Shown here: in pieces, positions 4,905 through 43,787 of the stretch
How the letters are laid out: each line of letters starts with the position of its first letter
How positions within the stretch are numbered: position 1 is the first letter of the stretch
NCBI GenBank assembly: GCA_016650215.1
Contig: JAENWF010000164.1
Coordinates: forward strand, 1-47,454
Source of the DNA: Thermoanaerobaculia bacterium
GTDB taxonomy: Bacteria; Acidobacteriota; Thermoanaerobaculia; Gp7-AA8
Direction of reading: 5' to 3'
DNA: 47,454 bases
The notes under the pieces: model-generated
What the model was told of the DNA's origin: nothing
What the model saw: the letters and a program-made list of their open reading frames with translations, nothing else
Databases searched by the model: none
Program-made: the position numbers and the translations under genes

Positions 4905-5038
4905 TGGCTCAAGTCTCCCAGGGCGCATTCTATTCGGGAGCGCGATCTCGCGGGACACGCGGGCCGGTGATGGCCGGCACCTGCACTGAAGAAGAGTTGC
5001 TTCAGTCTTGGCGGAATTGTTTAGTGTTGAAATCCGTC

Positions 5039-10616: not shown

Positions 10617-10668
10617 CACACTCTGTCTGATACACTTCGCGCGAGTTTTCGGCGGGGAGCGTAAGCCC

Positions 10669-16478: not shown

Positions 16479-16480
16479 AC

Positions 16481-17773
16481 ATGTTGAAGCATGGTTTGGC
16501 ATTCTTACTTTCACTGTTCGTTGCATCCGCTTCGCTTGCGCAGGAAGCGCCCGCTGCGGCGGAGCTCGAGTCGCGCGTCAGGGAGATGCAGCGGCAGATC
16601 GAGATTCTCATCACCGAGATCGAAGCGCTGAAGAATCGGCAGGCCGACAAGCCTGCTGCTGCCGACATCGAGCAGTTCGGCCTCGGCGCTGCCGCGTCGA
16701 AGGTCTATCGCGCGCAGCCCGGCGTGTCGTTCGGCGGCTACGGCGAGTTCCTCTATCAGAATGTCGCGGGAAGCAACGACGCCGGCGCGAGAGTCAGCAC
16801 ACGCGACACCGCCGACCAGCTGCGCGCCGTCCTTTACACCGGCTACAAGTTCAACGACCGCATCCTCTTCAACTCCGAAACGGAGTTCGAGCATGGCTCG
16901 ACCGGAGCCGGGGGCGAGGTCTCGGTCGAGTTTGCGTATCTCGATTTCCTCGCACGCCCCGACCTCGGAATCCGAGCGGGACTTTTTCTCGTTCCGATGG
17001 GCTTCATCAACGAACAGCACGAGCCGACCGCCTACCTCGGCTCTCGCCGCCCGCTCGTCGAGCGAACGATTATTCCCGCGACGTGGCGCGAAATGGGAGC
17101 CGGAATGTTCGGTGAGAACGGGCCTGTGAGCTGGCGCGCGTATCTGACGACAGGTTTGGACGCCGCGCGGTTTACATCGGGCGGCATTCGCAGCGGCCGC
17201 GGCAACGGCGCGCAGTCACTCGCCGAGGATTTCGCGTTGACCGGACGCCTCGACTATCAGCCGGTGGTCGGAACGGTGCTCGGGGTGTCGGCCTACAGCG
17301 GGAACTCCGGCCAGCGCGCCGTGGCTAACGGCGAGGAAGTGAAAGCGCGCGTCACGATGTTCGATCTGCACGCGGAGTCGCGCCTTCGCGGACTGCAGCT
17401 CCGCGGCCTCTGGACGCGTGCCACGCTCAACGACGCGGCAATGGTCAACGCGCTCAACAAGCTCACTGGCACGAATTCGGTCGGCGAGAGCTTTGGTGGA
17501 TGGTACGGTGAGATCGGATACGACCTCGCTTCGTTTCGCGGCTTCGGTGAGCGCTCAATCACGCCGTTTGTCCGCTACGAGAAGCTGAACCCCCAGCGCA
17601 GTGTTCCGACAGGCTTCTCGCTCAACCGCGCGCTCGACCAGGCGATCACTACGATGGGGCTTCAGTGGAAGCCGATCAGCCAGACGGTGATCAAGGCCGA
17701 CTACCAGAATTTAGACAACGAAGCCGGAACAGGCACGAATCAGTGGAATGTCTCTTTGGGATACATCTTCTGA
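16481..17773 (+). CDS. Outer-membrane porin-like beta-barrel with N-terminal coiled coil
   Basis: Track ORF 15611-17773 trimmed to the ATG at 16481, 3 nt after the apbE stop. Signal peptide MLKHGLAFLLSLFVASASLAQE is followed by the coiled coil ELESRVREMQRQIEILITEIEALKNRQ. The rest is Gly/aromatic-rich alternating sequence ending ...NVSLGYIF. Confidence 0.7.
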   Translation: MLKHGLAFLLSLFVASASLAQEAPAAAELESRVREMQRQIEILITEIEALKNRQADKPAAADIEQFGLGAAASKVYRAQPGVSFGGYGEFLYQNVAGSNDAGARVSTRDTADQLRAVLYTGYKFNDRILFNSETEFEHGSTGAGGEVSVEFAYLDFLARPDLGIRAGLFLVPMGFINEQHEPTAYLGSRRPLVERTIIPATWREMGAGMFGENGPVSWRAYLTTGLDAARFTSGGIRSGRGNGAQSLAEDFALTGRLDYQPVVGTVLGVSAYSGNSGQRAVANGEEVKARVTMFDLHAESRLRGLQLRGLWTRATLNDAAMVNALNKLTGTNSVGESFGGWYGEIGYDLASFRGFGERSITPFVRYEKLNPQRSVPTGFSLNRALDQAITTMGLQWKPISQTVIKADYQNLDNEAGTGTNQWNVSLGYIF

Positions 17774-18731: not shown

Positions 18732-18861
18732 GAGAAGGACGAGAGGGCGAGAAGACGGCGTTTCTTTGGCCCTCCCGTAGCCCGAAAGACGCGGCAACAG
18801 AACGACGACAAGTAGCGCCCGCCCGCGCATTTGGTTGGTGGACGGTCTACTATCTCCCGCC

Positions 18862-21800: not shown

Positions 21801-22152
21801 ACTCGACGAGATCGAAGGACCCGATACGAAGCTCCTCGGACGCGTCAACGCACTCGAAGCCGTACTTCTCGATATCGACGAAGAGCTCAATGGCGATGCC
21901 GTGCTCAAAGCGCAGAATGAACCGGCCCCGCCGACGCTGCTCGAGCGCGTGACGACCGCTGTCAATGGTCTGACAACGACGGCTCCACCGACGGGCACAC
22001 ATCGCGAAGCGTTGTCTCTTGCGGAAGCGCAGATGAAGCCACTGCTCGAAAAGCTGCGCCGTGTCATCGAGGTTGATCTCGCGGCTATCGAGAAGGAGCT
22101 CAATCGAAGCGCTGCGCCGTGGACGCCGGGGAGGATTCCGGACTGGAAGTGA
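18862..22152 (+). CDS. Secreted BNR/Sortilin-Vps10-repeat (glycosyl-hydrolase-like) double-propeller protein
   Basis: Trimmed to the ATG at 18862 with signal peptide MKFAIAVVIASASILGSASLHAADA. Asp-box motifs recur: YKSTNGGKSW, FKSTDGGKTW, HKSSDGGTTW, FRSTDGGANW, SEDGGANW, KSTDRGATW, TQNGGGTW. Confidence 0.85.
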   Translation: MKFAIAVVIASASILGSASLHAADAKPEDTSKYGEKTFAGLQLRGIGPALTSGRIIDIAVDPRDHNTWFIAVASGGVWKTTNAGTTFTPVFDGEKSYSIGCVTIDPRDSLTIWVGSGENNSQRSVAWGDGVYKSTNGGKSWTNVGLAKSEHIGKILVDPRDSNVVYVAAQGPLWNAGGDRGLFKSTDGGKTWKPALKISENTGVSDIVFEPGNPDVLYAAAYQRRRHVFTLINGGPESGIHKSSDGGTTWTKLTEGLPKEQMGRIGLAISPLAPRTVYAIVEAARKSGGFFRSTDGGANWEKTNSYMSASPQYYNEIFVDPNNADRVYSMDTYPRVSDDGGKTFRKIDQNLVHVDHHAIWIDPDNSDHILIGNDGGLYETFDRGSAWNFKQNLPVTQFYRISADDALPFYHVYGGTQDNFSLGVPSRTTTAHGITSSDWYITLGGDGFRTMADPENSDIVYAESQNGGLARFDKRTGEALDIQPQATGSMAPLRMNWDSALIVSPHKSSRIYFGAQYLFRSDDRGDTWKAVSGDLTRNMDRSKLPVMGRVWGVDAVAKNASTSYYGNIVSLAESPLKEGLIYAGTDDGLIQISEDGGANWRKVEKFAGVPDMTYVSRLETSAHDANTVYAAFDNHKTGDFKPYVLKSTDRGATWKSLASNLPANGTAYAIVEDHVDRNLLFVGTEYGLWFTQNGGGTWIQLKGGLPTIAVRDLWIQKRRNDLVVGTFGRGIYILDDYRPLRTMTETTAAAEAVLFAPRAAELYVERMPLGLPGAAFQGASFYTAPNPPFGAVFTYYLKDELKSRRKQRWAEESRVEKDGSNEPPPIPYPTREQLRTELRESEPAVVFVVSDDEGNVIRRVTGPVTAGFHRVAWDLRYPAPLPIEVTPPEPNLFQAPPAGPLVAPGRYTVRLSKRIDGIETPLGEAHPFEVVSLYLSIMNAADRNAVLEFQKRASRLQKTAMGIDKATAETLTRARLIRRALDEIEGPDTKLLGRVNALEAVLLDIDEELNGDAVLKAQNEPAPPTLLERVTTAVNGLTTTAPPTGTHREALSLAEAQMKPLLEKLRRVIEVDLAAIEKELNRSAAPWTPGRIPDWK

Positions 22153-26487: not shown

Positions 26488-28593
26488 ATGAAAAGAATCT
26501 CACTTCTGCTCTGTCTCATTCTGGCTGCGGGAACCGCTTCCGCGCAGAAGCGGGCCTTTACGATCGAAGACCTCTATCGCGTCAAGTCTGCGAGCGAGCT
26601 GACGCTCGCGGCCGACGGCCGGACTGCCGCCTTCACGCTGACCTCGTACGATCTTCCTCGGGCGAAGAAAACATCACGGATCTGGACCGCTGCCTCGGAC
26701 GGCCAGCGCGTCCGCGCGATCACGCAGGGCGAGAAAGACTCGACCCCGCTCTTCTCGCCTGACGGGAAGTCTCTCGCGTTCATCCGCGAAAAAGACGGCC
26801 TCGCGAACCTCTGGCTCCTTCCGATGAGTGGCGGCGAGCCACGGCAGCTCACTTCGATCTCGACGGGTCTGTGGGATCCGGTCTGGTCGCCCGACAGCCG
26901 TTTCATCGCGTTCGTGACCGACGTCTACCCGGAGTGCGGCGGCGACGATGCCTGCAGCAAGAAGATCTCCGACACGCGCGGCGAGGGGAAACTCAAAGCG
27001 CACATGTCGGACGAGCTTCTCTATCGCCACTGGAACGCCTGGCGCGACGGGATGATCTCGCACACCTGGCTCATCGACGTCGAATCGGGCGAGACGCGCG
27101 ACGTGACGCCGGGACGCAATGACTTTCCGCCGTTCCAACTCGGCGGCGCGCCGCAGTACGACGTCTCACCCGATGCCTCGGAGCTGGTGATTTCTGCCAA
27201 TCCCGATGCGAAGCGCGCGTCGTCGACGAACAACGATCTGTATCTCATCCCGTTGAAGGCTTCGGGCGAGCCGCGCAACATAACGGCTGCGAATCCGGCG
27301 TACGACAGCAGTCCGAAGTATTCGCCGGACGGGCGCTACATCGCCTACCGGACGCAGCGCGATCCCGGATACGAGTCGAGCCATGTCTTCCTCGCGCTCT
27401 ACGATCGCCGCGCGGGAACGACGCGCACGGTCTCGACCGCCTTCAACAACTGGGTCGATGACTTCCGCTGGTCTGCCGACTCGAAGTCGATCTTCTTCAC
27501 AGGTCCGGTCGAGGGGCGCACGCCGATCTATCGTTACGATCTCGCCTCGCAGTCGATCGCTCCGGTTGTCGACGACCGGCAGATCGACGACTTCGAGATC
27601 GCGCCCGACGGGAAGTCGATCATCTACATCGGACGCTCCGTCGGCGAGCCGACAGAGCTGTTCAGGCTCGCACTCGGCGTGCCCGCTCGCGGCGCGTCAG
27701 CTGCCCGTATGCCGCTCACGCGCCTGAACGAGACTCTCGCAAAAGAGGTCGACATCCGCCCCGCGGAGGTCATGTGGGTGACGGGAGCAAATGGCGCGCG
27801 GGTGCAGGTGTTCATCGTGAAGCCGCACGGATTCGATCCGGCGAAGAAGTATCCGCTGATCCTCAACGTTCACGGCGGGCCGCAGCAGCAGTGGACCGAT
27901 GCCTTCCGCGGCGACTGGCAGGTTTATCCGGGCGCCGGCTACGTAGTCGCGTTCCCGAACCCTCACGGCTCGACCGGTTTCGGCCAGGAGTTTACCGCCG
28001 CCATCTCAGGTGACTGGGGTGGGCGTCCATACGAGGACGTCATGCGCGTGACCGACGCGCTCGAGAAACTTCCGTACGTCGACCGCGATCGCATCGGTGC
28101 GATGGGGTGGTCGTACGGCGGCTACATGATGAACTGGATCGCCGGCCACACCGACCGCTACAAGGCGCTCGCGTCGATGATGGGCATTTTCGATCTCCGC
28201 TCGTTCTACTACTCGACCGAGGAACTCTGGTTCCCGGAATGGGATCTTCGCGGCGCGCCGTGGGAGTCGGATCAGTACGAGAAGTGGTCGCCATCGAACT
28301 TCGTCAAGAATTTCAAGACTCCAACGCTCGTCATCACCGGGCAGATCGACTTTCGCGTCCCATACTCGCAGAGCGTGATGATGTTCACCGCGCTGCAGAA
28401 GATGAACGTGCCGTCACGGCTCATCATCTTCCCTGAAGCAGGTCACTGGCCGGCGTGGAACGAGATGGCGTTCTACTACACCGCGCACCTCGACTGGTTT
28501 CACAAGTACCTCGGCGGAAGTGCCTCGCCATGGACACCGGACGACTACCTGCGAAATCAGGTGTTCGATGTTTCGGCGGGCAAGCGGAGGTGA
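26488..28593 (+). CDS. S9-family serine peptidase (prolyl oligopeptidase/DPP type) with N-terminal TolB-like propeller
   Basis: Signal peptide MKRISLLLCLILAAGTASAQ is present. SPDG+.IAF propeller repeats are followed by a C-terminal alpha/beta hydrolase domain with the GWSYGGY nucleophile elbow. Confidence 0.9.
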   Translation: MKRISLLLCLILAAGTASAQKRAFTIEDLYRVKSASELTLAADGRTAAFTLTSYDLPRAKKTSRIWTAASDGQRVRAITQGEKDSTPLFSPDGKSLAFIREKDGLANLWLLPMSGGEPRQLTSISTGLWDPVWSPDSRFIAFVTDVYPECGGDDACSKKISDTRGEGKLKAHMSDELLYRHWNAWRDGMISHTWLIDVESGETRDVTPGRNDFPPFQLGGAPQYDVSPDASELVISANPDAKRASSTNNDLYLIPLKASGEPRNITAANPAYDSSPKYSPDGRYIAYRTQRDPGYESSHVFLALYDRRAGTTRTVSTAFNNWVDDFRWSADSKSIFFTGPVEGRTPIYRYDLASQSIAPVVDDRQIDDFEIAPDGKSIIYIGRSVGEPTELFRLALGVPARGASAARMPLTRLNETLAKEVDIRPAEVMWVTGANGARVQVFIVKPHGFDPAKKYPLILNVHGGPQQQWTDAFRGDWQVYPGAGYVVAFPNPHGSTGFGQEFTAAISGDWGGRPYEDVMRVTDALEKLPYVDRDRIGAMGWSYGGYMMNWIAGHTDRYKALASMMGIFDLRSFYYSTEELWFPEWDLRGAPWESDQYEKWSPSNFVKNFKTPTLVITGQIDFRVPYSQSVMMFTALQKMNVPSRLIIFPEAGHWPAWNEMAFYYTAHLDWFHKYLGGSASPWTPDDYLRNQVFDVSAGKRR

Positions 28594-28898
28594 CGCTCGA
28601 CTTCGTCGTCCATGCGTCCGGCCATCATGAGGAACAGCATCCTGTAGTCTGCGGCGAGTGAATAGAACGGGTGGCCGAACGTCGCCGGCTTGTTGTGCTC
28701 GACGAAGAAGTGGGCGTACCAGGCGAACGCGTAGCCGATGATCGGTGCGAGAAGAAGCACCCATAGGTTCACCGCGAAGGCGACGGCGACGAGCGCGACC
28801 GCGAGCACCGAACCGATTGCGTGCAGCATACGGGTCCGCGGCCTCGCGTGCTGACGCACGTAGTACGGCCAGAAGTCTGCGAACGATTTGATGTGCAT
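28557..28898 (-). CDS. DUF962/Mpo1-like membrane protein
   Basis: Trimmed to Met17 (MHIKSFADFWPYYVRQH). FFVEHNKPATFGHPFYSLAADYRM is typical of the family. The 3' end overlaps the convergent peptidase gene by 37 nt. Confidence 0.7.
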   Translation of the reverse strand: MHIKSFADFWPYYVRQHARPRTRMLHAIGSVLAVALVAVAFAVNLWVLLLAPIIGYAFAWYAHFFVEHNKPATFGHPFYSLAADYRMLFLMMAGRMDDEVERHLRLPAETSNT

Positions 28899-28963
28899 CC
28901 GATACTGCGTGGCGCAGATTGTGGCATGAAGGTCGTGGCACTTCAATTGCTGCGGAGGCCGCT

Positions 28964-29318: not shown

Positions 29319-32300
29319 TCAGTACGCATACCCCAGCGTGATCGACCAGCTAAACGGGCGGTCGTATGCGCGGCGGTCGAGGGGGACGCCGACGTCGAGG
29401 CGGATCGGGCCGACGGGGGAGAGGTAGCGCAATCCGGCTCCCGCGCCGTAGCGGAGGTCGCCGAAGCGGATGTTCGATCCGGCGAAGACGTTTCCGAGGT
29501 CGGCAAAAACCGCGCCGCCAAGACTGCTGAAGATCGGGAAGCGATACTCCGCGTTGAAGAGAAACATGCTGTTGCCTCCGAGCGGTGCGAGGCGAAACTC
29601 GCCCGCTCTTTCATCGAGGTCGAACAGCGTCGGCTCGCAGCCGGGCACATCGATGCTGTTGTCGGCGCAGAGATCGCCGAGGAGATCGAGCGGATACGCG
29701 CGATGCGAAGTGTCACCGCCGGCGGTGAATCGCTCCGAGAGCGGGACCACCGCATCGCCTCGCGGCTGAATCAGGCCGACGCGTCCTGAGAGCGCGATGA
29801 CGCTGCGCGTGCTGACCGGCAGATACCACGCTCCCTGGATGAACTCCTTGAGGAAGTTCGCCTTCGCCGAGAACAGCGGGAACGCGTACTCGATCGACGC
29901 GCTCGTGAAGAAGCCGCGATGTGGATCGAAGACGTCATCGCGCTTGTCCCAGAAGAATGTGGGCGTGACGCTCGAGATCTGGATGTTGAGGAACGAGCGG
30001 TCCCCGCCCGGATCGATCCGGTCCTGCTGTTCGCAGAGATCGCCTTCGAGACACTCGGAGATCTTGTACTGGTACTGCAGGGACCAGCGCGTACGATTGC
30101 GTGCGACGCGTGACGCCTCGATCGACGTGCCGCGCTGCAGAAGCCTCGTCTCTTTTCGCGTCGCGTCATCGGTCTGATAGATCGTCAATTGCACCGGTAC
30201 GTTGTAGCGGCCGATGAACGGCTCGCGATACGTGATGAACAACTCCTGCTCCTTCACGCCGCCGGCTGTGCCGACGCCCTCGAGCCCGAGGTAACGACCA
30301 GTTCCGAAGAGATTGCGGTGCGCGACGCCCGCGGCGATGCGGTATGAAGCATCGCGCTTCCCCTGCTGCGATGTGCTTCCCGCGCGGAATCCGATCGACC
30401 CGCTGACCGTGAGGTTGCGACCTTCCTCGACGTCGATCGTGATGTTGCGGTCGGAGACGGATGTCCCCGCCTGCTCGGGGCGGAGATCCGCGCGGGCGAA
30501 GATGCCGAGGCGGTAAAGATCGCGCTGGGCCTCGAGAATCGCGGTGTAGCTGAACGGCTCGCCCTTCTCGAGTCCGACCTTCCGCAGAATGACATCGGAG
30601 TCGGTATATGTGTTCCCGCGGACGGAGACCTCGCCCACTTTCACCCGCGGCCCTTCGCTGATGACGTAGTGAAGGCGCGCCGACTTTTTGTCCTCACTCA
30701 GGTCGACTTGATGAGAGATGTTGACCTCGGCGTTGCCCCGGCCGGCGTAAAACGTCTGCAGCGCGATGATGTCCTCGCGCAGCATCACGGGATTGAGCGG
30801 CACGCCCTCCTCGAGCTGGAGTTTCGGAAGAGCAGACGTCTTCACCTGTTCGATACCCTCGACGTTCACCTGCGTGAGGATCGTCTGCGGCCCCTCCGTG
30901 ATGGGGAAGGTGACAACGAGCGTGCCATCCGGATTCGTTTTCGGAATGGGTGACGCGACCACGGCTTCGGAGAAGCCTTGCAGGCGGTAGTGCGATTCGA
31001 GCGCGTCGCGGTCTGCCGTCAACTGCGCGCGCGTGACACCGGTGCGACGGCGCAAAAGCGATGAAATGAGCCGCTTGATGCCGCCGCGGGGATTCGTCGC
31101 CACGATCGGTTCCAGCTCCTTGTCGCGAATTTGAAGATTGCCGTCGAACTCCACGTCTGTGAGCTGGAAGCGCTGGCCGGGTTGTACGTTGAAGGTCGTG
31201 ATCCAGGTACTCGTGCCGCTGTCGAGACGGCTTTCGGTATCGACCGATGCGTTGAAGTGTCCGCGTTGCTGAAGTGAGGTAACGATGTTCTCCGCGGCGC
31301 GGTCGATCGCGTCCTCGCTGTACTCCTGATCGCCGCGGAACGGGAGCAACCGGCGCACCGAGCTTCGCGAAACGCCGGCGACATCGACTCGGACTTTCGG
31401 CCCGACGGTCGCGCGATAGCGGAGCGTGACCTGCTTCGAATTCTTGTCATAGGTGTGCCCGAGGAATTCGACATCGGCGCGACGATACGACTTGCTCGCG
31501 AGATAGTTCTGAATGCGATCGGCATCGCCTCTCGGCTCGGTGCTCTTGAACGTCCGGCCGGGCTTTCCGCGCACCCGTTTGAGCAGCTCCACCTCAGTGA
31601 AGGGAGTCAGGTCGCCTTCGATTTCGACTGTTGAGATCTTCGCGAGCGGACCTTGCTCGACGTGGAGAGTGATGTTCGCGAGATTGTCCGCGCGACGGAA
31701 TGAGGTTTCGGGATCGACAGTGGCCTCGAGATACCCTGCTTTTCGCAGTTCTTCCTGAATCGCGACTGCGCTGTCATCGACGGCGTTGAGCGAGAGGACC
31801 TCTCCGCGCCGCACGGTCGCCTTTCGTTCAGCCCGCCGCTTGCTCGATCCGGTGACCCCCGCGTACGCGATCTTGTCGATACGGTAGTTGAGCGAGAGCG
31901 TGAAGGTGACGATCGAGTCGCCGTTCCCGCTCGCGGTGGAATCGATGCGGATGTCGCGGAAGTTTCCTGTCGCGTGTAACGCCTTGACGGATTCCTGCAG
32001 CGCGCGTCGCGTCAGCATGTCACCCGTCTTGAACGTCACGTGTTCGGCCAGCACCGACGTGTCGAAGCCACCATCGGCGCGGAAACGAACTTCGCCGACG
32101 CGTGAGCCGGCAGGGACGGGCGCGACCGCGGTTGTCGCAGGTGCGGGAATGGCGTCGGCGGGCGCGACGGCATCCGCGATCTTCCCGAGCGCGAAAATCT
32201 CGTCGTTGCGACTTCCGCGTCCGCCCCACGTCCATCGTCCGTCATAGCGCCGGCGGAAGCGCGCGTCGACCCGGTACTCGTTCTGCTCGCCGTCGTGAGT

Positions 32301-35300
32301 GAGCTGCAGCGTCCAGTCGCGGGTCGCGAGCCATTCGATCACCTCGCGGCTGTCGTGGCTCGTCATGTTGTACACGACGAGCACGCGGACGTCATCGGAT
32401 ACGCGCTTCTCGAATGTGACCTTCGGCTGGGGACCGGAGGCGGTCGTATCGAGGAGGCCGGGGTCATATGTGAACGAGTCGGCGAACGGGAGGATTCTCG
32501 ATCCGAGCTGTGAGAAGAGACTCTGCATGATGAAGGACTGGCCGAGCAGACCCGCGCTCTGATTCGTTCCCTCGCCTTGCCGCGCCAGCCCGCCGAGGCC
32601 GAGAATCGAGAAGAGCGTGATGTCGCTCGCCGGCGGGTCGCTTGTGATCGACGGCGTGAGGTGCTCGATCGTGCCGGTGAGATTGATCGTGAGATCGACC
32701 GTTCCGCTTTCGAGCTCGGTGGAGATGCCGCCCGACACGCGTCCTTCGAGCGTGACGTCGAAGTACGGGTCGATGCGGAACGGGTTCTGAAAGTTGATGG
32801 TGCCGCGGACGAGACGGTAGTCGATGTTCTGGAACGTGACCGTGCCGCCTTCGTCGAGATCGACCGATCCGAGAATGACTGGATTCGCGAGCGTGCCGGT
32901 GAGGTCGAGATCGGCGGTTCCGGTCACCTTGGCAATGTTGTTCTCCACGGCGAGCGTGCCGGGGGCCGCGAGGTGGACGCGAAGGTCCACGCGGTCCTGC
33001 CATCCGGCCGGCACGATCGGTGTGATGCCGCGGCGCGACAGAATGATGTTGAGTACCGACTGCTGCAGATCGAAGTCCTTGAAGTAGAGCGCGCGTGTGA
33101 CGTCCACGTCGCCCTGCAGCGTCGCCCGCTCCAGATCGCCGTTGAGGAGCAGATTGAAGTTGCCCTCGACGGTGACGCCCTCGAAGTAGCGAAGCGTGAC
33201 GTCGGTCCCTTGCAGTGTGATGCGAGCGCGCTGCGGCTTGAATCCCTGGACCGCGATGAAGCCGCCGGCGACCACGGTCCCGCCGCCGAGCGTCGCTCGC
33301 ATCGAGTCTATGTCGATCCGGTCGCCGCGGAAGGTCAGCCGTCCGTTGATGTCGTCCAGGATCTGCGGGAAGCCGGCGAATCGCACCTGCGCGTTCTCAA
33401 GATCCGCCTTGCCGGTGATGACCGGCGCGTCGGTTGTGCCGCGTGCCGTGACTGCTACCTTGACGTGCCCGCTCGCGCGTGCGTCGGTGACGAATAGCTG
33501 AAGCAGGGCTGCCTCGATTCCGCCTTGAACATCGAGGTTCAATCGCTTGGCACCGGTGAGCTCCATGAAGCCGGTCACCGCGAAACCTCCATCGGCGTGT
33601 CGCAGTTCGAACGCGTCGAACGTGACTCGTCCGTTACGGAGACCGATTCGAAGCGGCTCGCGCGGCGAAAACTCGTGACCCGAAACGCTGAGGTTGAATA
33701 CCGGCACCGTCGCGTCGATGAGGAGTGCCTCAAACGGCGAGAGTTTGCCTCCGAGACGAAGATCCATGACGAGATTTCCGGAAGCGGGGATCGTCGCAGC
33801 TGCGGGTGAGAGCGCGATGACGCGCGCGATGTCGGCGATCGTGACCTTCACGAGTCCGTCGACCGCAAGCTCAGGACCGACAGCCCCTTCGCCTTCGATG
33901 GTGACGATGTCGGCAATCGAGCCGCGGACGATCAGGCGGCCATTGCGGATCGCGAGATAGATGGATGGCGGCGGCGTGCCGGCCGGAAGCGTGAGGCCGC
34001 GCAGCGTCGCTTCATTGAGCTTCGCCTCCAGTACCAGTTCGGGGTCGTCGAGCGATCCGGCGCCCGTCGAGCTGAGCGTGACATTGCCGCCGAGAAGTCC
34101 GCGGATTCCCTCGAGCAGCTTCAGCTTCGAGAGATCGATCGAGCTTGATGCAATCGTGTAACTGAAGCGGTCGGTCGCGAGGTCGAACTCGGCCTCGCCC
34201 TTGATCTCGCCGGCCGGGAACCTGACTGCGACGTTCGTCGCGCGCATCCGCCCTTCCGTGAACGCGATGTCCGCGGCCGCGGAGTCGATCGGCTCGCCGT
34301 AGATCGATCCATTCGCGATTGCGATCGAGCCCGCGCCGCCGAGCGCGCTCTTGGGGCCTTCCAGGTGGAGTGATCCGGTCAGATCGCCGTTAACGGGAAG
34401 CGTGCCGAGGTCGAGGAACGCAATGATGTCGGCGATCGGGAAAGCGCGCGCATCGATGTCGAGGTCGAAGCGAACGTTGCCTTCGCCGGGCAACCAGTTC
34501 ACATCGCCGGCGAGCTTGAGCTGCGACGTGCCGCGGTTGATCGTCAGTCCCGCAAACGTGACGCGGCCCGACTCGGGCGTGCCGGTGACGACGAGACGTC
34601 CAGTGCCCGTTCCGCCGCCGACCACGAAGTCGAGACCGACCGCCTTGATCGCGCGATCAACCGGATAGTTCGTCGCGTCCACCGCGATGTCGAAACGGGG
34701 CGACGGACCGCGATCGGGGAAGGCGACGGTCCCCGTCAGCGCGAGACGGCCTGCGCCATCGGTGAAGACTGCGCGATCAAACGTCAGCGTGCTGCGGGGT
34801 CCGTCGTAGCGGAGATCGATGTCGGCGCCGCCGAGAAGGATGTTGTTGTACTTCGTGCCGTTGCCGCTGACGTGCGCTGCGACCACCGGTGCTTCGATCG
34901 GTCCGCGAACGGTGCCGCTGATCTCGCCCGAACCGCCGAGACCGAGGAGCTCGAAGTCCTTCTTGCCTGCGGAGCGCGCGAAGTTGTAGGCAAGACGGTC
35001 GAGCTCCGAGAAATCGCGGCTCGCGATCCGCATGCTCAGATCGGTGACGGTTCCTTCGATGCGAAGCGTGCCGGTCAGGCTGACGTGCGAGGTGTCGGTG
35101 TCGAGCTCCGCGCTGCGGAACGTCACCACTCCGCGATCGAGACCGAAGCGTGTCGTGCCCGCGAGCGGGATCGGGTACTTCGCGTTCGAGAATGCGACGG
35201 TGTTCCTCGCGAGCCGCGCGTTGCCTTCTCCTGACCCATCGAGGATCTTGTCCTTGTTCCAGCGATAGGTGAGGTCGCCGGTCGCTGCACCGCGCAGCCC

Positions 35301-36527
35301 GGTGTTGTCGACACCCCAATCCTTGAAGAGCTGTTCGATTGAGATCCGGTCGTAGCGAAGCTCGACATTCATCGGGTACGGCTCGGCGTACTTCGTCAGC
35401 ACGTAGTCCGCGTTGATCGTGCCGCCGCCGTAGACCGCGCGCTCGACGTCGATGAGCGCGCGGCTGCCATTCACGTCGAGTTTGCCTCGCGCGTCGGAGA
35501 GCTCGTACGTGTCGGCGACGATGTTCGGACTGCGCCATCCGCCGGTGAGACGGAAGTCGCCCTGGCGGCCGCGAAGATTCGTGTCGAGCGCAATCTCTCC
35601 TTCGAGCGTCTGCTGTACTCGAAAGATCTCTTTGATCCTTTCGAGCCCCATGCGTGATGTCACGCGCAGGTCGTACACTCCGTCTGTGAGCGGTTCGAGC
35701 TTGCCGGAGACGAATGCTTCGATTCCTTTTCCGCGGAGCGCGATCGAGTTCAACGCGAGCCTGCCGGGCGTGTAACGGAAGCCTCCGCGCATGTCGAGAT
35801 CGAACGGAACGTAGTCCTGGAGTGTGACGCGCAGCCGCGGACTCGTCATCAGGCCCGCATAGAGATTGTCAGCGCGCGTGACGTTGATCTGCGAGTTGAT
35901 ACCAATCGCCTCGGCCGTGACTTTGTGGCGGCGATCGAGAAACAGCAGCGTGCCGCTCTGCACAAACATCTGGCCGAGCTCCAGCCGCACGATCTCGTAC
36001 TTGCTGCGCGGTCCCGACTTCCATCGCGGAAAGTTGTGGATGAGCGGCGCGCCTTCCGGATACACCTCGAAGTTCAGGCGCGATCCGATGATATCGACGC
36101 GGCCGACTTTGATCTGCCGCCGCCAGAACGATTCGACGCCGCCGGTGATCACGACCTGCTGCACCGTAGCGAAGTGCGGATTCACTGCGCCGGGTGCGTT
36201 CGCGATACGGAGGTCGTTGAGGATCACTCGCTGCGGACGGCCGCGCGGAATCTCCACGCTCCTGATCGTCACGTCGCGGCCGAGCCGAGCCTCGAGCGTT
36301 TTCTCGACGCGCAGGCGAACGAGGTCGGCAAAGTTCGCGCTGCCGAGATACCACCACCCGCCGCCGATCACGAAGAAGAGCAGCAGGCCCCCGCCGATGA
36401 AGAGAAACATCATCGTGCGGAGGCAACCCCACATGGGTCCTCTGCGCTGGCGTTCGCGCGCGGAGCGGTGATGCCCCGTCTCGCTCGGGAACAGCGTGTG
36501 GCTGTCGTCTGGTGGTTGCTGATCCAT
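29319..36527 (-). CDS. Giant envelope protein: TamB/AsmA-like N-terminal ~1428 aa fused in frame to a ~7-POTRA Omp85 (BamA/TamA-family) beta-barrel
   Basis: Uninterrupted 2402-aa ORF. The N-terminal signal anchor reads TMMFLFIGGGLLLFFVIGGGWWYL. A long beta-rich G/T/L-repeat region follows, ending in a DUF490-like tail (KVTFEKRVSDDVRVLVVYNM...WTLQLTHDGEQNEYRVDARFRRRY). Next come an Ala/Pro linker and about seven ~80-aa POTRA-like units. The C-terminal ~366-aa barrel carries RFTAGGDTSHRAY (position of the Omp85 loop-6 motif) and the terminal ...ITLGYAY. Confidence 0.85.
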   Translation of the reverse strand: MDQQPPDDSHTLFPSETGHHRSARERQRRGPMWGCLRTMMFLFIGGGLLLFFVIGGGWWYLGSANFADLVRLRVEKTLEARLGRDVTIRSVEIPRGRPQRVILNDLRIANAPGAVNPHFATVQQVVITGGVESFWRRQIKVGRVDIIGSRLNFEVYPEGAPLIHNFPRWKSGPRSKYEIVRLELGQMFVQSGTLLFLDRRHKVTAEAIGINSQINVTRADNLYAGLMTSPRLRVTLQDYVPFDLDMRGGFRYTPGRLALNSIALRGKGIEAFVSGKLEPLTDGVYDLRVTSRMGLERIKEIFRVQQTLEGEIALDTNLRGRQGDFRLTGGWRSPNIVADTYELSDARGKLDVNGSRALIDVERAVYGGGTINADYVLTKYAEPYPMNVELRYDRISIEQLFKDWGVDNTGLRGAATGDLTYRWNKDKILDGSGEGNARLARNTVAFSNAKYPIPLAGTTRFGLDRGVVTFRSAELDTDTSHVSLTGTLRIEGTVTDLSMRIASRDFSELDRLAYNFARSAGKKDFELLGLGGSGEISGTVRGPIEAPVVAAHVSGNGTKYNNILLGGADIDLRYDGPRSTLTFDRAVFTDGAGRLALTGTVAFPDRGPSPRFDIAVDATNYPVDRAIKAVGLDFVVGGGTGTGRLVVTGTPESGRVTFAGLTINRGTSQLKLAGDVNWLPGEGNVRFDLDIDARAFPIADIIAFLDLGTLPVNGDLTGSLHLEGPKSALGGAGSIAIANGSIYGEPIDSAAADIAFTEGRMRATNVAVRFPAGEIKGEAEFDLATDRFSYTIASSSIDLSKLKLLEGIRGLLGGNVTLSSTGAGSLDDPELVLEAKLNEATLRGLTLPAGTPPPSIYLAIRNGRLIVRGSIADIVTIEGEGAVGPELAVDGLVKVTIADIARVIALSPAAATIPASGNLVMDLRLGGKLSPFEALLIDATVPVFNLSVSGHEFSPREPLRIGLRNGRVTFDAFELRHADGGFAVTGFMELTGAKRLNLDVQGGIEAALLQLFVTDARASGHVKVAVTARGTTDAPVITGKADLENAQVRFAGFPQILDDINGRLTFRGDRIDIDSMRATLGGGTVVAGGFIAVQGFKPQRARITLQGTDVTLRYFEGVTVEGNFNLLLNGDLERATLQGDVDVTRALYFKDFDLQQSVLNIILSRRGITPIVPAGWQDRVDLRVHLAAPGTLAVENNIAKVTGTADLDLTGTLANPVILGSVDLDEGGTVTFQNIDYRLVRGTINFQNPFRIDPYFDVTLEGRVSGGISTELESGTVDLTINLTGTIEHLTPSITSDPPASDITLFSILGLGGLARQGEGTNQSAGLLGQSFIMQSLFSQLGSRILPFADSFTYDPGLLDTTASGPQPKVTFEKRVSDDVRVLVVYNMTSHDSREVIEWLATRDWTLQLTHDGEQNEYRVDARFRRRYDGRWTWGGRGSRNDEIFALGKIADAVAPADAIPAPATTAVAPVPAGSRVGEVRFRADGGFDTSVLAEHVTFKTGDMLTRRALQESVKALHATGNFRDIRIDSTASGNGDSIVTFTLSLNYRIDKIAYAGVTGSSKRRAERKATVRRGEVLSLNAVDDSAVAIQEELRKAGYLEATVDPETSFRRADNLANITLHVEQGPLAKISTVEIEGDLTPFTEVELLKRVRGKPGRTFKSTEPRGDADRIQNYLASKSYRRADVEFLGHTYDKNSKQVTLRYRATVGPKVRVDVAGVSRSSVRRLLPFRGDQEYSEDAIDRAAENIVTSLQQRGHFNASVDTESRLDSGTSTWITTFNVQPGQRFQLTDVEFDGNLQIRDKELEPIVATNPRGGIKRLISSLLRRRTGVTRAQLTADRDALESHYRLQGFSEAVVASPIPKTNPDGTLVVTFPITEGPQTILTQVNVEGIEQVKTSALPKLQLEEGVPLNPVMLREDIIALQTFYAGRGNAEVNISHQVDLSEDKKSARLHYVISEGPRVKVGEVSVRGNTYTDSDVILRKVGLEKGEPFSYTAILEAQRDLYRLGIFARADLRPEQAGTSVSDRNITIDVEEGRNLTVSGSIGFRAGSTSQQGKRDASYRIAAGVAHRNLFGTGRYLGLEGVGTAGGVKEQELFITYREPFIGRYNVPVQLTIYQTDDATRKETRLLQRGTSIEASRVARNRTRWSLQYQYKISECLEGDLCEQQDRIDPGGDRSFLNIQISSVTPTFFWDKRDDVFDPHRGFFTSASIEYAFPLFSAKANFLKEFIQGAWYLPVSTRSVIALSGRVGLIQPRGDAVVPLSERFTAGGDTSHRAYPLDLLGDLCADNSIDVPGCEPTLFDLDERAGEFRLAPLGGNSMFLFNAEYRFPIFSSLGGAVFADLGNVFAGSNIRFGDLRYGAGAGLRYLSPVGPIRLDVGVPLDRRAYDRPFSWSITLGYAY

Positions 36528-36555: not shown

Positions 36556-37737
36556 CTAAGGACGAGCCACTAAGTACAGATCCCGCAGGTTGTTGCCCGT
36601 CGGAAGCATGATAACGGCTCGCCCGAGTCTGAGGGCGGTTGTCATGGAGTCGGAGCGGGAGAGCGAGGAAACCGCCGCGGACTCCTCGACGGCCGCGGGA
36701 ACGGGGTCGAAGGCGACCCCGGCAGCGCCACTGCTGCCGTCGACACCGTCGGAACTGCCGAAGAGCGCACGGAGCCCGCGGCTCGCCGATTGGATCGCGA
36801 AGCGCACAGCCATCTCTGAACAGCGGCCGCCGCGGCCGTCTCCGTGCCTGACTACGGTCGGCTCGCCGCCCGCGATCAGCACTTCGCCGCTGCGAAGTGT
36901 CGCGGCGCGCGACGCCAGAGCCCGCGCGGCCTCCGAGACATCGCCTTCGATCTGTCCCTCCCACATGACCGGCATCAGCCCTTCCTGTCGAACGATGCGC
37001 GCCGCGGCGCGCGTCAGCGTGTTGTTGTCGGCGACGAGCAGCGACATCGCGTGAGTGAGCTCTGCAACAGTGTCGGGTACTGATTCATCGCGCAGCGCGG
37101 TGACGATCCGGTCACATCCTCCGATCGACTCGAGGATGGTGATCGCGTCGGACTTCCGGGCGGAGTCGGGGAGCGTTGGTCCGGATGCGACGGATGCGAG
37201 ATCCCCGGTGCCGACATCGGAGTAGACGAGTGTCACGCAACGGCGCCGTACGCGCGCAGCGAGTCGCCCGCCCTTGATCGCCGAAAGGTGTTTCCGCACG
37301 CAGTTGATCTCTGCGATCGGAAGGCCAGCGTCGATGAGCCGTGCGTTGGTGTCAGCGATGTCGCGCCGGGTGAACCACGGAACGAGCGGCGACTCCACGC
37401 ATGCGGAGCCTCCACCCGAGATCAGGAAGAGGATCTCGTCATGCGCGTCGACGAAGCGAAGAAGCTCATTCCCTGCGGAGAAGGAGTCTTCGTCGACCTG
37501 CGGATGCCCGCCGAAGAAGACGTCGGCGCCCGCGATGGGCGGGGGATACATGCGCGGGATGACCGCGATCGCGTCGCGGACCGGGTGAACGGCGGCAACT
37601 CCGTCGAGCAACGCACCGGCGCACTTGCCGATCGCGACCACATCGCGCGGCATGTCAGGACGGACGACCGTTCGCACCAACTCCTGCGGCGCGCATCTAC
37701 TCAGTGTTTGGCGGTAGATCGTTTCCAAATCGGGCAC
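36556..37737 (-). CDS. Glycerate 2-kinase (MOFRL/DUF4147 family)
   Basis: LISGGGSACVE, VLIAGGEPTV and the C-terminal MOFRL-like part are present. 393 aa. Confidence 0.8.
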   Translation of the reverse strand: MPDLETIYRQTLSRCAPQELVRTVVRPDMPRDVVAIGKCAGALLDGVAAVHPVRDAIAVIPRMYPPPIAGADVFFGGHPQVDEDSFSAGNELLRFVDAHDEILFLISGGGSACVESPLVPWFTRRDIADTNARLIDAGLPIAEINCVRKHLSAIKGGRLAARVRRRCVTLVYSDVGTGDLASVASGPTLPDSARKSDAITILESIGGCDRIVTALRDESVPDTVAELTHAMSLLVADNNTLTRAAARIVRQEGLMPVMWEGQIEGDVSEAARALASRAATLRSGEVLIAGGEPTVVRHGDGRGGRCSEMAVRFAIQSASRGLRALFGSSDGVDGSSGAAGVAFDPVPAAVEESAAVSSLSRSDSMTTALRLGRAVIMLPTGNNLRDLYLVARP

Positions 37738-37760
37738 GCGGTCATTATCCTGTTCTCAGC

Positions 37761-38960
37761 GTGAACAGGCCTCCTCTCAAACGGCGCGTCCTTCTGCTCA
37801 CGGCCGGTTTCGCCCTGGTGCTGTTCGCCGTGACGTTCGGATTGACGTGGCGCGCTCAGACATCGCAGCAGCGATGGACGCGGCTGATCGACGTCGAGCT
37901 GCGCGCGGTTGCGACACTCGATGAATTGATTCGAACGCAGAGCTCCTTCACGCTGCGCGGCTACGCCGATGCGCGCGCGCCTCTGAAGTATCGCAACGTA
38001 GAGCAGTTGCTCGAACGCCCCGTGCTCGAAGGAATCGATATCGCCGAACTGCGGTCGCGTGTCGGCGGATTCCGCCGGAGGCTGGAAGCGCGTCCGCCTG
38101 ACGCGCGACTGCTCGCTGTTGCGGGGCGCGGTGTGGTGACGGAGGCGCAGCGGCTCGCGGAGGAGCGAAAGCAGGAGGTCGCCCGGCAGATCCCGCGTCT
38201 CCAGCGCGAGACGCGCGACATGCGCAAAATCGGACTTGCCACCGCGTGGATCATTTTTCTGCTGAGTCTTGCCGCGGTCATCACGATGATGAAGAACGTC
38301 GTCGCGCCGATGGAGCGGCTGGTGGCGGTCGCGAAGGAGATCGGCGGAGGTAACCCCGACGCGCGCGCGACTCCGAGCGGCGATCTGGAGATCTGGCAGC
38401 TCGCAGAGGCCTTGAACGAGATGGCCGCGGAGCTCAATCGGCGAGCCCGCACCGATGACCTCACCTCACTTCCGAACTTCCGATCTCTTCGCGAGCGTCT
38501 CGATGGCGAGATCGAACGCAGCGCGCGTTACAAAGCCCGCTTCGGCATCCTCGTTCTCGATCTCGACCGTTTCAAGAAGTACAACGACACGTACGGGCAT
38601 CTTGCGGGTAACGCCGCGTTGCAGCGCGTGGCGGCGGTGCTGAAAGAGATGGTGCGCGACAAGATCGATATGGCAGCACGCTATGGTGGAGAAGAGTTTG
38701 TTGTGATTCTTACCCAGGCAGATCTTGTTGCGTTGCAGCACGTCGGCGAGCGCATCCGCGCATCTGTCGAAGCACTCCCTGCGCCTCCCGGCGGAGCTGC
38801 CGTCACGATCAGCATCGGCGCCGCTCTTTATCCTGACGATGGTGTGACGGCCGAAGAGCTGTTCCACGCAGCCGACGAGCGGCTCTACGAGGCGAAACGG
38901 CGAGGGCGCAATCTGGTCGTCGTCAGGGCTGCTGCTCCAGATGCTCGATCAGCCGGTTGA
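37761..38960 (+). CDS. Membrane-bound HAMP-GGDEF diguanylate cyclase
   Basis: Trimmed to the GTG at 37761 to avoid overlapping the divergent glycerate kinase start. Two TM segments and a HAMP-like linker are present. The GGDEF domain carries the RYGGEEFVVIL active site. Confidence 0.85.
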   Translation: MNRPPLKRRVLLLTAGFALVLFAVTFGLTWRAQTSQQRWTRLIDVELRAVATLDELIRTQSSFTLRGYADARAPLKYRNVEQLLERPVLEGIDIAELRSRVGGFRRRLEARPPDARLLAVAGRGVVTEAQRLAEERKQEVARQIPRLQRETRDMRKIGLATAWIIFLLSLAAVITMMKNVVAPMERLVAVAKEIGGGNPDARATPSGDLEIWQLAEALNEMAAELNRRARTDDLTSLPNFRSLRERLDGEIERSARYKARFGILVLDLDRFKKYNDTYGHLAGNAALQRVAAVLKEMVRDKIDMAARYGGEEFVVILTQADLVALQHVGERIRASVEALPAPPGGAAVTISIGAALYPDDGVTAEELFHAADERLYEAKRRGRNLVVVRAAAPDARSAG

Positions 38961-42057: not shown

Positions 42058-43542
42058 ATGTCGCGAAAGACGTCGGTCCACGACCTCGAACGGCTGATTC
42101 TGTCGTTTCACTCCCTCATCGCGGTCGAGACTGCGGAGGAGGAGCGGGTTCGTTCGATCCTCATCGAGGTGGCCGCCGAACTGAGGATGCCGCTCTACGA
42201 GTGGTCGGTGACGACCGGGCTGATGCGTCGGGCAGGGATAACGATCGAGGGGACGCGCGACGCGCTGTCGGCACTCGACCGGATCGGCGAGGTTCACGAC
42301 GGCGACGCCATCTATCTGATGAAGGATCTCGCGCCGCATCTGAATCAGTCGGCGACGGCGCGGACGCTTCGCGAGCTGACCTCGCGGCTGGCTTCAACGC
42401 GCTCTGCGATCGTGCTGACGGGCGATCCAGTCGAGCTGCCGCACGACCTCGAGTTTGCTGCCGTGCGCCTCGAGCTGCATCTCCCCGATCCGGAGGAGGT
42501 CCGGCAGACAATCCGGGAAGTGGTTGACTCGATCAGCGCGCGGAAGCATGTGCAGCTCGATCTGTCACGCGATGAGGCGCAGCAGCTCGTCCGCGCTCTT
42601 TCGGGGCTGACGATCAGCCAGGTGCGGCGCGTGATCGCGCTCGCGATTCTCGCCGATGACCGGCTGTCTGTGAACGACATCGACCGCGTCATCCGCTGGA
42701 AAGGGGAGATCATCGAGCGCGGCGGATTGCTCGAGTTCTATCCCGTCGATGGAAACCAGTTCGAGCTCGGCGGCTTCGATCGACTGAAGCGCTGGCTCGA
42801 ACAGACGAAGGTCGGGTTCAGCAGCGAAGCGCGCGCGCTCAATCTTCATCCGCCGAAAGGCGTGCTGTTCGTCGGCGTTCAGGGCTGCGGAAAATCGCTC
42901 GCCGCCAAGTATGTCGCTCGGCAGTGGCGACTTCCATTGCTGAAGCTCGACGCCGGGCGGCTGTATGACAAGTACATCGGCGAGTCGGAGAAGAACTTCC
43001 GGAAGGCGACGGAGCTCGCCGAGGCGATGGCGCCCGCGGTGCTCTGGATCGATGAGATCGAAAAGGCGTTCGCGCCAGGCGGCGACAACGACGGCGGAAC
43101 TTCGCAGCGCCTCTTCGGTGCATTTCTCACATGGCTGCAGGAGAAGAAGAAAGAGGTGTTCGTCGTCGGCGCGGCGAATGACCTCAACCGCTTGCCGCCG
43201 GAGCTGCTGCGCAAAGGGCGATTCGACGAGATCTTCTTCGTCGATTTGCCGGACGAATCCGAACGAGCATCGATCTTCGCGGTGCACCTTCGGCTGCGAA
43301 AGCAGGATCCGGCGCGGTTCGATCTGGCGAAGCTCGCGGCCGAGTCGCAGGGATTCAGCGGAGCGGAGATCGAGCAGGGCGTCGTGTCGGCGCTCTATCG
43401 TTCGCTGCACGCAAAGTCGCCGCTGACCAGCGACGGAATCGTCGAGGCTCTGCATGCGACGACGCCGCTGTCGGTCACACGCGCGGAAGACATCGAAGCG
43501 ATCCGGGCGAACGCGGCAGGACGATTCACGCCCGTGAAGTGA
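42058..43542 (+). CDS. Ycf46-like AAA+ ATPase
   Basis: The N-terminal domain reads LILSFHSLIAVETAEEERV...LYEWSVTTGL. The C-terminal AAA module has Walker A GVQGCGKSLAAKYVA and Walker B VLWIDEIEKAF, plus LLRKGRFDEIFFVDLP. Confidence 0.8.
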   Translation: MSRKTSVHDLERLILSFHSLIAVETAEEERVRSILIEVAAELRMPLYEWSVTTGLMRRAGITIEGTRDALSALDRIGEVHDGDAIYLMKDLAPHLNQSATARTLRELTSRLASTRSAIVLTGDPVELPHDLEFAAVRLELHLPDPEEVRQTIREVVDSISARKHVQLDLSRDEAQQLVRALSGLTISQVRRVIALAILADDRLSVNDIDRVIRWKGEIIERGGLLEFYPVDGNQFELGGFDRLKRWLEQTKVGFSSEARALNLHPPKGVLFVGVQGCGKSLAAKYVARQWRLPLLKLDAGRLYDKYIGESEKNFRKATELAEAMAPAVLWIDEIEKAFAPGGDNDGGTSQRLFGAFLTWLQEKKKEVFVVGAANDLNRLPPELLRKGRFDEIFFVDLPDESERASIFAVHLRLRKQDPARFDLAKLAAESQGFSGAEIEQGVVSALYRSLHAKSPLTSDGIVEALHATTPLSVTRAEDIEAIRANAAGRFTPVK

Positions 43543-43544
43543 AC

Positions 43545-43787
43545 CTTCGCTTCGCTCAGAGACCGTGAAGAAATCCGGCCTCTGTGTGGCGCCGTCGACC
43601 CGCGGCGGCGCTCTGCGGCCGTCGGGAACAGGTATGGCCAATGAATTCACAGGACGCCGCCGCGGGTCGGCGGCTCCACACAGAACCGCCGCGTTTCGCT
43701 TGCTCAGAGGCGTGAAGAAATCGACTCGCATGTTCCGTCACGTGCCGCGGTGCCACCGATGACCCTTCGCTACGCTCAGGGTTGGAT
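43545..43787. repeat. Complex structured intergenic repeat region (REP-like CGCTTCGCTCAG motifs, direct repeats and a 33-bp inverted repeat)
   Basis: Direct repeats are GCTCAGAGACCGTGAAGAAATC (43554-43575) and GCTCAGAGGCGTGAAGAAATC (43702-43722). The inverted repeat pairs GGCCTCTGTGTGGCGCCGTCGACCCGCGGCGGCG (43577-43610) with CGCCGCCGCGGGTCGGCGGCTCCACACAGAACC (43655-43687). A third CCTTCGCTACGCTCAGGG motif lies at about 43763-43780. Confidence 0.75.

Follow-up and report, generated by a model that had tools for sequence, protein, structure and literature searches.

In Escherichia coli, TAM (the translocation and assembly module) is built from two proteins: a signal-anchored TamB, with a groove of the 'beta-taco' type and a C-terminal DUF490 domain, and its Omp85 partner TamA (structures 9XDC/9XDD; nanodisc structures, PMC13119328). 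Here we describe a gene in which a TamB and an Omp85 protein are joined in one polypeptide of 2402 residues. The gene lies at 29319..36527 on the minus strand of a 47,454-nucleotide stretch of DNA (the window in what follows; contig JAENWF010000164.1, assembly GCA_016650215.1) from a Thermoanaerobaculia bacterium, and its product runs from a putative N-terminal membrane anchor through a TamB part and a short linker to a series of POTRA domains and an Omp85 barrel.

The fused chain shares with the E. coli TAM the putative signal anchor, the C-terminal DUF490 of TamB and the Omp85 partner, and a groove is predicted for it as well, and the role proposed for TAM, phospholipid transport and assembly of outer-membrane proteins (OMPs), is also the one proposed for the fusion. 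E. coli TamB ends in a module of two helices and six strands (PMC12800296), which is matched here by the secondary structure that DSSP assigns to an AlphaFold2 (AF2) model. In both proteins the last strand of this module is beta-signal-like; in E. coli it pairs with beta1 of TamA, with the TamB strands occupying the opened barrel (PMC12800296), and we propose a similar pairing for the fusion. According to a cryo-electron microscopy study of 2026, TamB and TamA make a stable hybrid barrel that is functional (PMC13119328). The two systems differ in that TAM consists of two proteins rather than one polypeptide, in that TamA has three POTRA domains against seven here, and in gene order, which is tamA-tamB in E. 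coli, whereas here the tamB part comes first and is followed by omp85. In addition, the Omp85 half of the fusion fits BamA profiles and has no signal peptide of its own.

The gene order seen here is that of Borrelia burgdorferi, where tamB (BB0794) stands directly upstream of a BamA-type omp85 (BB0795) and the products form a hybrid of TAM and BAM, the machinery of beta-barrel assembly (PMC5582053, PMC11361582, PMC13382580). The DUF490 of Borrelia TamB binds the POTRA domains of BamA, and a model predicts that TamB strands complete the BamA barrel (PMC13382580). The Borrelia proteins are separate, and their BamA has five POTRA domains and is sole and essential; here the chain is fused and has seven. 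Canonical BamA likewise carries five POTRA domains behind its own Sec signal peptide, in place of which the fusion has a non-hydrophobic linker. Since a TamB-Omp85 interaction is established in both E. coli and Borrelia, the fused halves correspond to partners that interact elsewhere, as expected of a Rosetta-stone fusion.

Acidobacteria have been described as carrying a canonical BamA plus a second, seven-POTRA BamA, with the gene order BamA-TamB, as opposed to the tamB-omp85 order of spirochaetes, in which the linked Omp85 is the sole BamA (Heinz et al. 2015, PMC4494059). The second acidobacterial BamA, proposed there as the evolutionary origin of TamA, resembles our Omp85 half in having seven POTRA domains and a link to TamB, but it is a separate gene and stands in the opposite order. 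The main text of that study describes no fusion; its 'very long' TamB sequences might be such chains. There is precedent for partner or passenger domains fused N-terminally to a POTRA-Omp85 unit in PlpD, with its patatin-POTRA-barrel architecture, and in the WD40-Omp85 'BamA-BamB-like' proteins (Heinz & Lithgow 2014). In plants, the TamB-Omp85 link across the envelope has its counterpart in chloroplast TIC236-TOC75, made of separate proteins. None of these three joins an inner-membrane-anchored bridge protein to the barrel.

Conservation, origin and recurrence of the fusion

The gene is one ATG-started open reading frame (ORF) of 2402 codons plus a stop, encoding a protein of about 260 kDa; the first-pass annotation of this DNA, made from the letters alone, had likewise read one uninterrupted ORF of 2402 aa. 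Searching with the full-length protein gave at least 120 homologues, which measure 2356-2469 aa, match it at 58-72% identity with about 100% coverage and all have TamB, POTRA and Omp85 parts; those sources that give names assign them to Thermoanaerobaculia, a class of Acidobacteriota. A scan of GTDB species representatives found 80 loci at 49-65% identity, labelled Thermoanaerobaculia, 'Acidobacteria gp7' or Acidobacteriota metagenome-assembled genomes (MAGs). The frame is uninterrupted over at least 2300 aa in 61 of them, the remainder being interrupted by contig ends; the junction is open in dozens of independent genomes. Far from being rare, the architecture has become fixed in a large clade of Thermoanaerobaculia, and its conservation exceeds by far what chance would give. 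Compared with 21 homologues, the studied protein shows 52-64% identity in each of its TamB, POTRA and barrel parts (57-64% for the two halves, which are equally conserved), against 30% for the 43-residue junction. Both halves are therefore under selection, with neither decaying, while the junction has the character of a linker.

When representatives were searched exhaustively with residues 1203-2402, the fused family was retrieved first and then unfused Omp85 relatives of about 920-1000 aa, in which the match starts at the first POTRA domain. Closest among the unfused are P0129, at 41% identity, and, at 38%, the P0133/P0365 cluster, which is named BamA and comes from a Thermoanaerobaculia MAG. 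Both share the gene neighbourhood of the studied gene (GGDEF/HAMP, DUF4147/MOFRL, tamB, omp85), but each partner has a gene of its own there, tamB of 1413 or 1495 aa and omp85 of 955 or 950 aa, and the two genes lie in different frames with an overlap of 7 or 4 nt. One pair lies on JAMPYE010000012.1 (TamB of 1413 aa with MCM2313812.1, 955 aa), the other on the P0129 contig. In blastp alignments, residues 14-1432 of the fusion are colinear with residues 8-1413 of the split TamB, and residues 1474-2402 with the mature part of the split Omp85 (residues 34-955). The terminus of the split TamB, ...DLTFRRRFAGQW and its stop (FRRRFAGQW before the stop), coincides exactly with W1432 of the fusion, and the classical signal peptide of the split Omp85, MVRVRTAVLLLALALAFAGQSARA, falls outside the aligned region. 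Two further split relatives share the TamB end FRRRF[AS]GQW, again directly before the stop. Split pairs of sister Thermoanaerobaculia thus have the synteny, a TamB end of the form FRRR[FY]xGxW and a seven-POTRA Omp85 (30-41% identity) in common with the fusion, and differ from it in being two genes, overlapping out of frame by 4-7 nt, and in the classical signal peptide of their Omp85. A genome scan with a single protein found three split relatives only, the alignment of unfused Omp85 relatives being too divergent for such a scan.

The gene is a true Rosetta-stone fusion, as the first-pass annotation had proposed, and arose by the joining of adjacent tamB and omp85 genes. Because the stop and start codons of the split genes overlap in different frames, a frameshifting change at the junction was needed; it deleted the TamB stop and turned the region of the Omp85 signal peptide into a flexible Ala/Pro/Thr linker. 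At one related locus (L082, 2286-10388, plus strand) a stop-free frame of 2700 aa runs across a split tamB in the frame of the downstream omp85. It could pass for a fusion but is a GC-rich off-frame artefact, since the genes called there are separate and overlap by 4 nt.

Among the other results of the representative search were proteins of about 2014-2084 aa, at about 30% identity, that are likewise TamB-POTRA-Omp85 chains. Searches seeded from these gave dozens more, of 1918-2381 aa, whose source names include a Cryosericum MAG, Luteitalea, Vicinamibacterales, Bryobacterales, Blastocatellia and another Thermoanaerobaculia lineage. A genome scan located 51 further loci, from Vicinamibacteria, Bryobacteraceae and Solibacteraceae, and in 35 the frame is open over at least 1900 aa. 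A broader scan, which included Polarisedimenticolia, Blastocatellia and Vicinamibacterales, counted about 20 fused against about 45 adjacent but split tamB-omp85 pairs, the two states being interleaved inside Vicinamibacterales. Fused chains only distantly related to the studied one thus occur in Polarisedimenticolia as well. In a neighbour-joining tree of the barrel domain, the fused proteins fall into at least three or four separate clades and the clade of the studied gene is nested among unfused sequences; the tree is distance-based, and the exact number of fusion events is uncertain. The TamB end motifs also differ from clade to clade. Tree and motifs together imply at least three independent fusions and are not compatible with a single origin. 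The recurrence, and the interleaving of fused and split forms, indicate that the covalent link is tolerated or advantageous.

Fragments and frame-broken copies of fused genes occur among the seemingly unfused or short entries (P0202, P0409, P0418 and the loci L097, L124, L127 and L133): P0202, for instance, starts inside TamB, and some loci from long-read MAGs carry interrupted frames. Automated counts of fused versus split genes are biased unless such entries are removed. In a Bryobacteraceae MAG, the fused gene is followed directly downstream by a second, partial Omp85-like ORF of 347 aa (L099, 7888-8928, minus strand; E 4e-13 to the barrel profile), which is oppositely oriented and stands at the contig edge.

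The first-pass annotation knew of no description of such a fusion. As far as the literature goes this stands: in full-text searches and in TAM/BAM papers, reviews and structures of 2024-2026 included, we found no natural TamB-Omp85 fusion described and none catalogued as a common BamA variant. Public databases, on the other hand, hold hundreds of fused entries under automatic names, which are 'TamB domain-containing protein', 'BamA' or 'BamA/...TamB'. The fusion extends a known system rather than being a new kind of system, and it is common in uncultured Acidobacteriota.

Domain architecture and predicted structure

The features of the chain are collected in Table 1. The first-pass annotation had listed an N-terminal signal anchor, a long beta-rich region, a DUF490-like tail ending in DARFRRRY, about seven POTRA-like units, and a barrel with a motif at the loop-6 position and an ITLGYAY end, and each of these was confirmed at the position it had given. 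Residues 33-61 reach a 19-aa Kyte-Doolittle maximum of 2.16, with no window above 1.6 elsewhere in the 2402 aa, and are taken as the single N-terminal inner-membrane signal anchor, preceded by a conserved basic tail. As the positive charge precedes the hydrophobic segment, the positive-inside rule would place the N-terminus in the cytoplasm.

AF2 models were built with 39 homologues in two pieces, residues 1-1200 and 1203-2402. The first piece was predicted, with a predicted local distance difference test (pLDDT) score of 80.6, as a continuous sheet of about 75 strands, and its best Foldseek matches in the PDB are the lipid-binding beta-belt of ApoB100 and the bridge-like lipid transfer protein LPD-3/BLTP1 (E 5e-6). 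Pfam matches in the N-terminal part are weak and of the DUF748/AsmA/YhdP types (DUF748 at 58-239, AsmA at 98-155). Within the N-terminal 1430 aa there is nevertheless a strong match to the Pfam TamB family, which spans profile positions 3-381 of 381, while the NCBIfam TamB equivalog stays far under its cut-off (28.9 vs 825 bits). In the second piece, the model shows the two helices and six strands of the TamB end, a disordered linker (pLDDT below 50), seven POTRA units (pLDDT 80-90) and 16 barrel strands. The last strand of the TamB module is amphipathic and beta-signal-like, with DARFRRRY at residues 1421-1428; RFRRRY and W1432 are kept across the alignment of the fused family. The module does not stand at a free C-terminus, for the chain runs on for another 970 residues.

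The Omp85 half is clearly BamA-like and not TamA-like. PF01103 matches residues 2072-2400 (E 6e-45), and over residues 1729-2399 the score for the BamA equivalog TIGR03303, 370.5 bits, exceeds the cut-off of 297, whereas the TamA model NF047950 reaches 98.5 of 625 bits and the TamL model falls far under its NCBIfam cut-off. The top Foldseek match of residues 1203-2402 is E. coli BamA (E 1e-44). The family profile aligns with BamA 4k3b through POTRA domains and barrel (E 1e-46), in contrast to TamA (E 3e-19), which it meets only along the last barrel strands. The multi-POTRA barrel of the first-pass annotation holds, the partner here being of the BamA type with seven POTRA domains and not of the TamA type.

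The canonical Omp85 loop-6 motif is ..GG..S[VI]RG[FY], that is, (V/I)RG(F/Y). We take residues 2265-2278 to be a variant of it, with RFTAGGDTSHRAY at residues 2266-2278; the motif reads SHRA[YF] in the clade of the studied gene, and the Arg is invariant. The fused clade of Vicinamibacteria/Bryobacterales retains the canonical TVRG, so that independently fused families differ in a set of residues considered important for Omp85 function. Four cysteines of the barrel region (residues 2159, 2165, 2287 and 2297; 29635-30053) are invariant across the fused family, and their contexts, KISEC..GDLC and LGDLC..VPGC, suggest two loop disulfides, one of them just past the loop-6 motif.

The linker varies among fused relatives from 12 to 65 aa (median about 52) and contains no Met. 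After W1432 there is a semi-conserved x-[WLF]-G, followed by a variable stretch rich in Ala, Pro and Thr. Its most hydrophobic core is not like that of a signal peptide, with a median 12-residue Kyte-Doolittle value of 0.94 as against 2.9 for the split Omp85 signal peptide. With the stop codon of TamB and the export signal of Omp85 both lost, and with neither a Met nor a hydrophobic core in the linker, the Omp85 half can be made and exported only within the long chain.

Table 1. Features of the fused tamB-omp85 gene and its upstream neighbour (window coordinates)
Feature	Position	Strand	Evidence
Whole fused gene	29319..36527	-	Single ORF; full-length homologues (58-72% identity); unbroken in 61/80 related genomes
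Residues 1-32, short basic cytoplasmic tail (..GHHRSARERQRRGP), putative	36432..36527	-	Basic motif nearly invariant in family alignment
Residues 33-61, only hydrophobic transmembrane-like segment, taken as inner-membrane signal anchor	36345..36431	-	Kyte-Doolittle
Residues 62-1301, predicted long beta-groove ('beta-taco') region of TamB/AsmA type that would span the periplasm	32625..36344	-	Weak Pfam matches, AF2, Foldseek
Residues 1076-1428, Pfam TamB (DUF490) domain	32244..33302	-	PF04357, E 6e-44
Residues 1302-1432, TamB C-terminal module ending EYRVDARFRRRY-DGRW	32232..32624	-	AF2 DSSP (2 helices, 6 beta-strands)
Residues 1433-1475, Ala/Pro/Thr-rich flexible linker, 43 aa, in place of Omp85 signal peptide	32103..32231	-	pLDDT, identity, alignment
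Residues 1476-2035, seven POTRA domains	30423..32102	-	Seven Pfam POTRA stretches, E 2e-54; seven beta-alpha-alpha-beta-beta units
Residues 2036-2402, 16-strand Omp85 barrel with C-terminal beta-signal ...ITLGYAY	29322..30422	-	Pfam, NCBIfam, AF2, Foldseek
Residues 2265-2278, loop-6 motif ERFTAGGDTSHRAY	29694..29735	-	E2265, R2266, F2267, G2270, G2271, R2276 invariant in family alignment
DUF4147/MOFRL (glycerate-kinase-like) gene upstream	36556..37737	-	Pfam; 28 nt from fused gene; syntenic marker

A probable one-chain trans-envelope bridge and its alternatives

We consider it probable that the gene encodes a single-chain, TAM-like TamB-Omp85 module that spans the envelope. The content and order of the domains, the single transmembrane segment, the open junction, the balanced conservation of both halves, the split orthologues and the recurrence in other lineages all count in favour of this. 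The N-terminal signal anchor would tether the chain in the inner membrane, the remaining ~2340 residues would be exported via Sec, the beta-groove would cross the periplasm, and the C-terminal 16-strand barrel would enter the outer membrane by its own terminal beta-signal; the inner-to-outer polarity proposed in the first-pass annotation agrees with the single N-terminal anchor and the C-terminal barrel. By analogy with the cryo-electron microscopy structures of E. coli TamAB and the model of Borrelia BamA-TamB, the six C-terminal TamB strands, ending in ..YRVDARFRRRY, may lie docked against beta1 of the barrel, at its lateral gate, and so give a hybrid barrel that is intramolecular and permanent. 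The last TamB strand, E-Y-R-V-D-A-R-F-R-R-R-Y, alternates between a hydrophobic/aromatic and a charged face, as would be expected of a strand at a barrel seam. Like any beta-signal strand, it should finish on the periplasmic side, from where the linker can return to POTRA1. Acting uncleaved as a one-chain bridge, with an obligatory 1:1 stoichiometry of bridge to barrel, the module would carry phospholipids along its groove to the outer membrane and/or aid OMP assembly.

Several points weigh against this reading. All carriers are uncultured MAGs, and the proteins are known from sequence alone. The Foldseek match of residues 1-1200 to the solved TamB chain 9xdc_B is weak (E 0.098), and sequence-only searches of the PDB, with the whole protein or with residues 1010-1432, reach no solved TamB chain; nor does one appear among the best 60 of the 77 matches of the family profile. 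It is therefore mainly the Pfam TamB profile that places the chain in the TamB family. In the model, the C-terminal part of TamB reaches a pLDDT of only about 60-73, and this low confidence also bears on the docking of the TamB strands within their own barrel. With seven POTRA domains, moreover, the path from the TamB C-terminus to POTRA1 must fit the 43 residues of the linker, and that linker might be cleaved, as discussed below.

Split relatives overlap out of frame, so a single indel error in sequencing or assembly could imitate a fusion by falsely merging neighbouring tamB and omp85 genes. Such an error would not replace the signal peptide with a distinct linker of another length, and of the 80 species-level genomes, each assembled independently, 61 have an open junction, as do the at least 120 database proteins noted above; the artefact explanation is effectively refuted. 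We likewise reject, as very improbable, a second translation start that would yield a separate, independently exported Omp85. Nothing was found in its favour: residues 1429-1480 contain no Met, no stretch after residue 61 has signal-peptide-like hydrophobicity, and promoter-like sites in the region are not above chance. It is harder to dismiss the main rival, a polyprotein, translated and exported in one piece and then cut in the linker by a periplasmic protease to give separate TamB and Omp85, in which case the fusion would serve solely co-export and stoichiometry. The linker is disordered, variable and in principle accessible to proteases, and the x-[WLF]-G just past the ancestral terminus W1432 could mark a processing site that restores a near-native TamB C-terminus. 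However, the linker has neither a conserved cleavage motif nor a hydrophobic core of the signal-peptidase type, its length and sequence drift freely, and independent fusions elsewhere carry different and often much shorter linkers (about 10-40 aa; these lengths come from blastp end-points and are noisy, and P0202, a fragment of a fused protein, was excluded). Release also seems unnecessary given the published stable hybrid-barrel state, and we regard cleavage as unlikely.

A further possibility, compatible with the single-chain bridge and in effect a variant of it, is that the Omp85 half is the only BamA of the organism, making the fusion a single-chain BAM-TAM whose essential insertase is permanently tethered to the inner membrane. 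The scores above the BamA equivalog cut-off, the failure of the TamA and TamL models and the far better fit of the family profile to BamA (E 1e-46) than to TamA all point this way, as does the order of tamB before omp85, shared with spirochaetes, whose sole BamA is the Omp85 linked to TamB (Heinz 2015). Neither the window nor about 1 Mb of flanking sequence from related loci showed a second Omp85: Pfam searches of the larger window ORFs and an Omp85 hidden Markov model run on window ORFs of at least 150 aa found no other, nor did a home-made Omp85 model find one in ORFs of the locus flanks, although these flanks are a tiny fraction of each genome. On the other side, Acidobacteria are reported to carry a canonical BamA besides a second one with seven POTRA domains (Heinz et al. 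2015), and the fused Omp85 also has seven; tethering every BamA 1:1 to the inner membrane would moreover be a heavy constraint. We hold this variant to be rather improbable. It is similarly doubtful that the fused protein is the only BamA-type insertase of the whole clade, with all OMP assembly and bulk phospholipid delivery confined to inner-membrane-tethered sites. If it were, envelope biogenesis would run through one trans-envelope chain of about 260 kDa, and new copies of the fused protein would themselves be inserted at tethered sites. Matches of five-POTRA size in the representative search were considered as candidate bamA genes and set aside as fragments, as tamB-adjacent Omp85 (P0255) or as BamA of Deltaproteobacteria (P0223).

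How phospholipids and some proteins reach the outer membrane is a current question, to which TamB and its Omp85 partner are central. Recurrent, lineage-wide covalent fusions testify independently, from evolution, that outside Proteobacteria TamB works with a BamA-like Omp85; a 2026 paper on diderm Firmicutes still treats this partnership as an open point. In the single-chain bridge proposed here, a permanent 1:1 attachment of the TamB C-terminus beside the barrel would be compatible with function, which favours the stable hybrid barrel as the working state over models in which TamB disengages. The fusion also poses a puzzle of biogenesis, as the barrel has to be inserted into the outer membrane while its own N-terminus sits anchored in the inner one. 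Finally, the lengths and compositions of the linkers, as several independent solutions, could serve as a design template for single-chain TamB-TamA constructs in structural and functional studies.

Other features of the window

The DUF4147/MOFRL gene upstream of the fused gene is possibly co-transcribed with it. A block consisting of a divergent GGDEF/HAMP diguanylate cyclase gene, DUF4147/MOFRL and tamB is common to the window (36556-38960) and the split relatives, L081 (3189-10007) and the P0129 contig; no functional tie between the GGDEF-MOFRL part and the fused gene is evident. Rfam gave no match in the window, and promoter and terminator scans of it gave nothing above chance. Five of its ORFs, 4904-7222 (+), 15611-17773 (+), 9426-10709 (-), 42565-43731 (-) and 28414-28941 (-), of 772, 720, 427, 388 and 175 aa, respectively, match no Pfam family at E < 0.001, and some of them may be spurious frames over real genes on the opposite strand of this 62% GC sequence. 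Two further genes seem unrelated to the fusion: 18835-22152 (+) encodes a Sortilin/BNR-repeat protein of 1105 aa, and 43788-46547 (-) a PDZ-GAF-SpoIIE (PP2C phosphatase) signalling protein of 919 aa.

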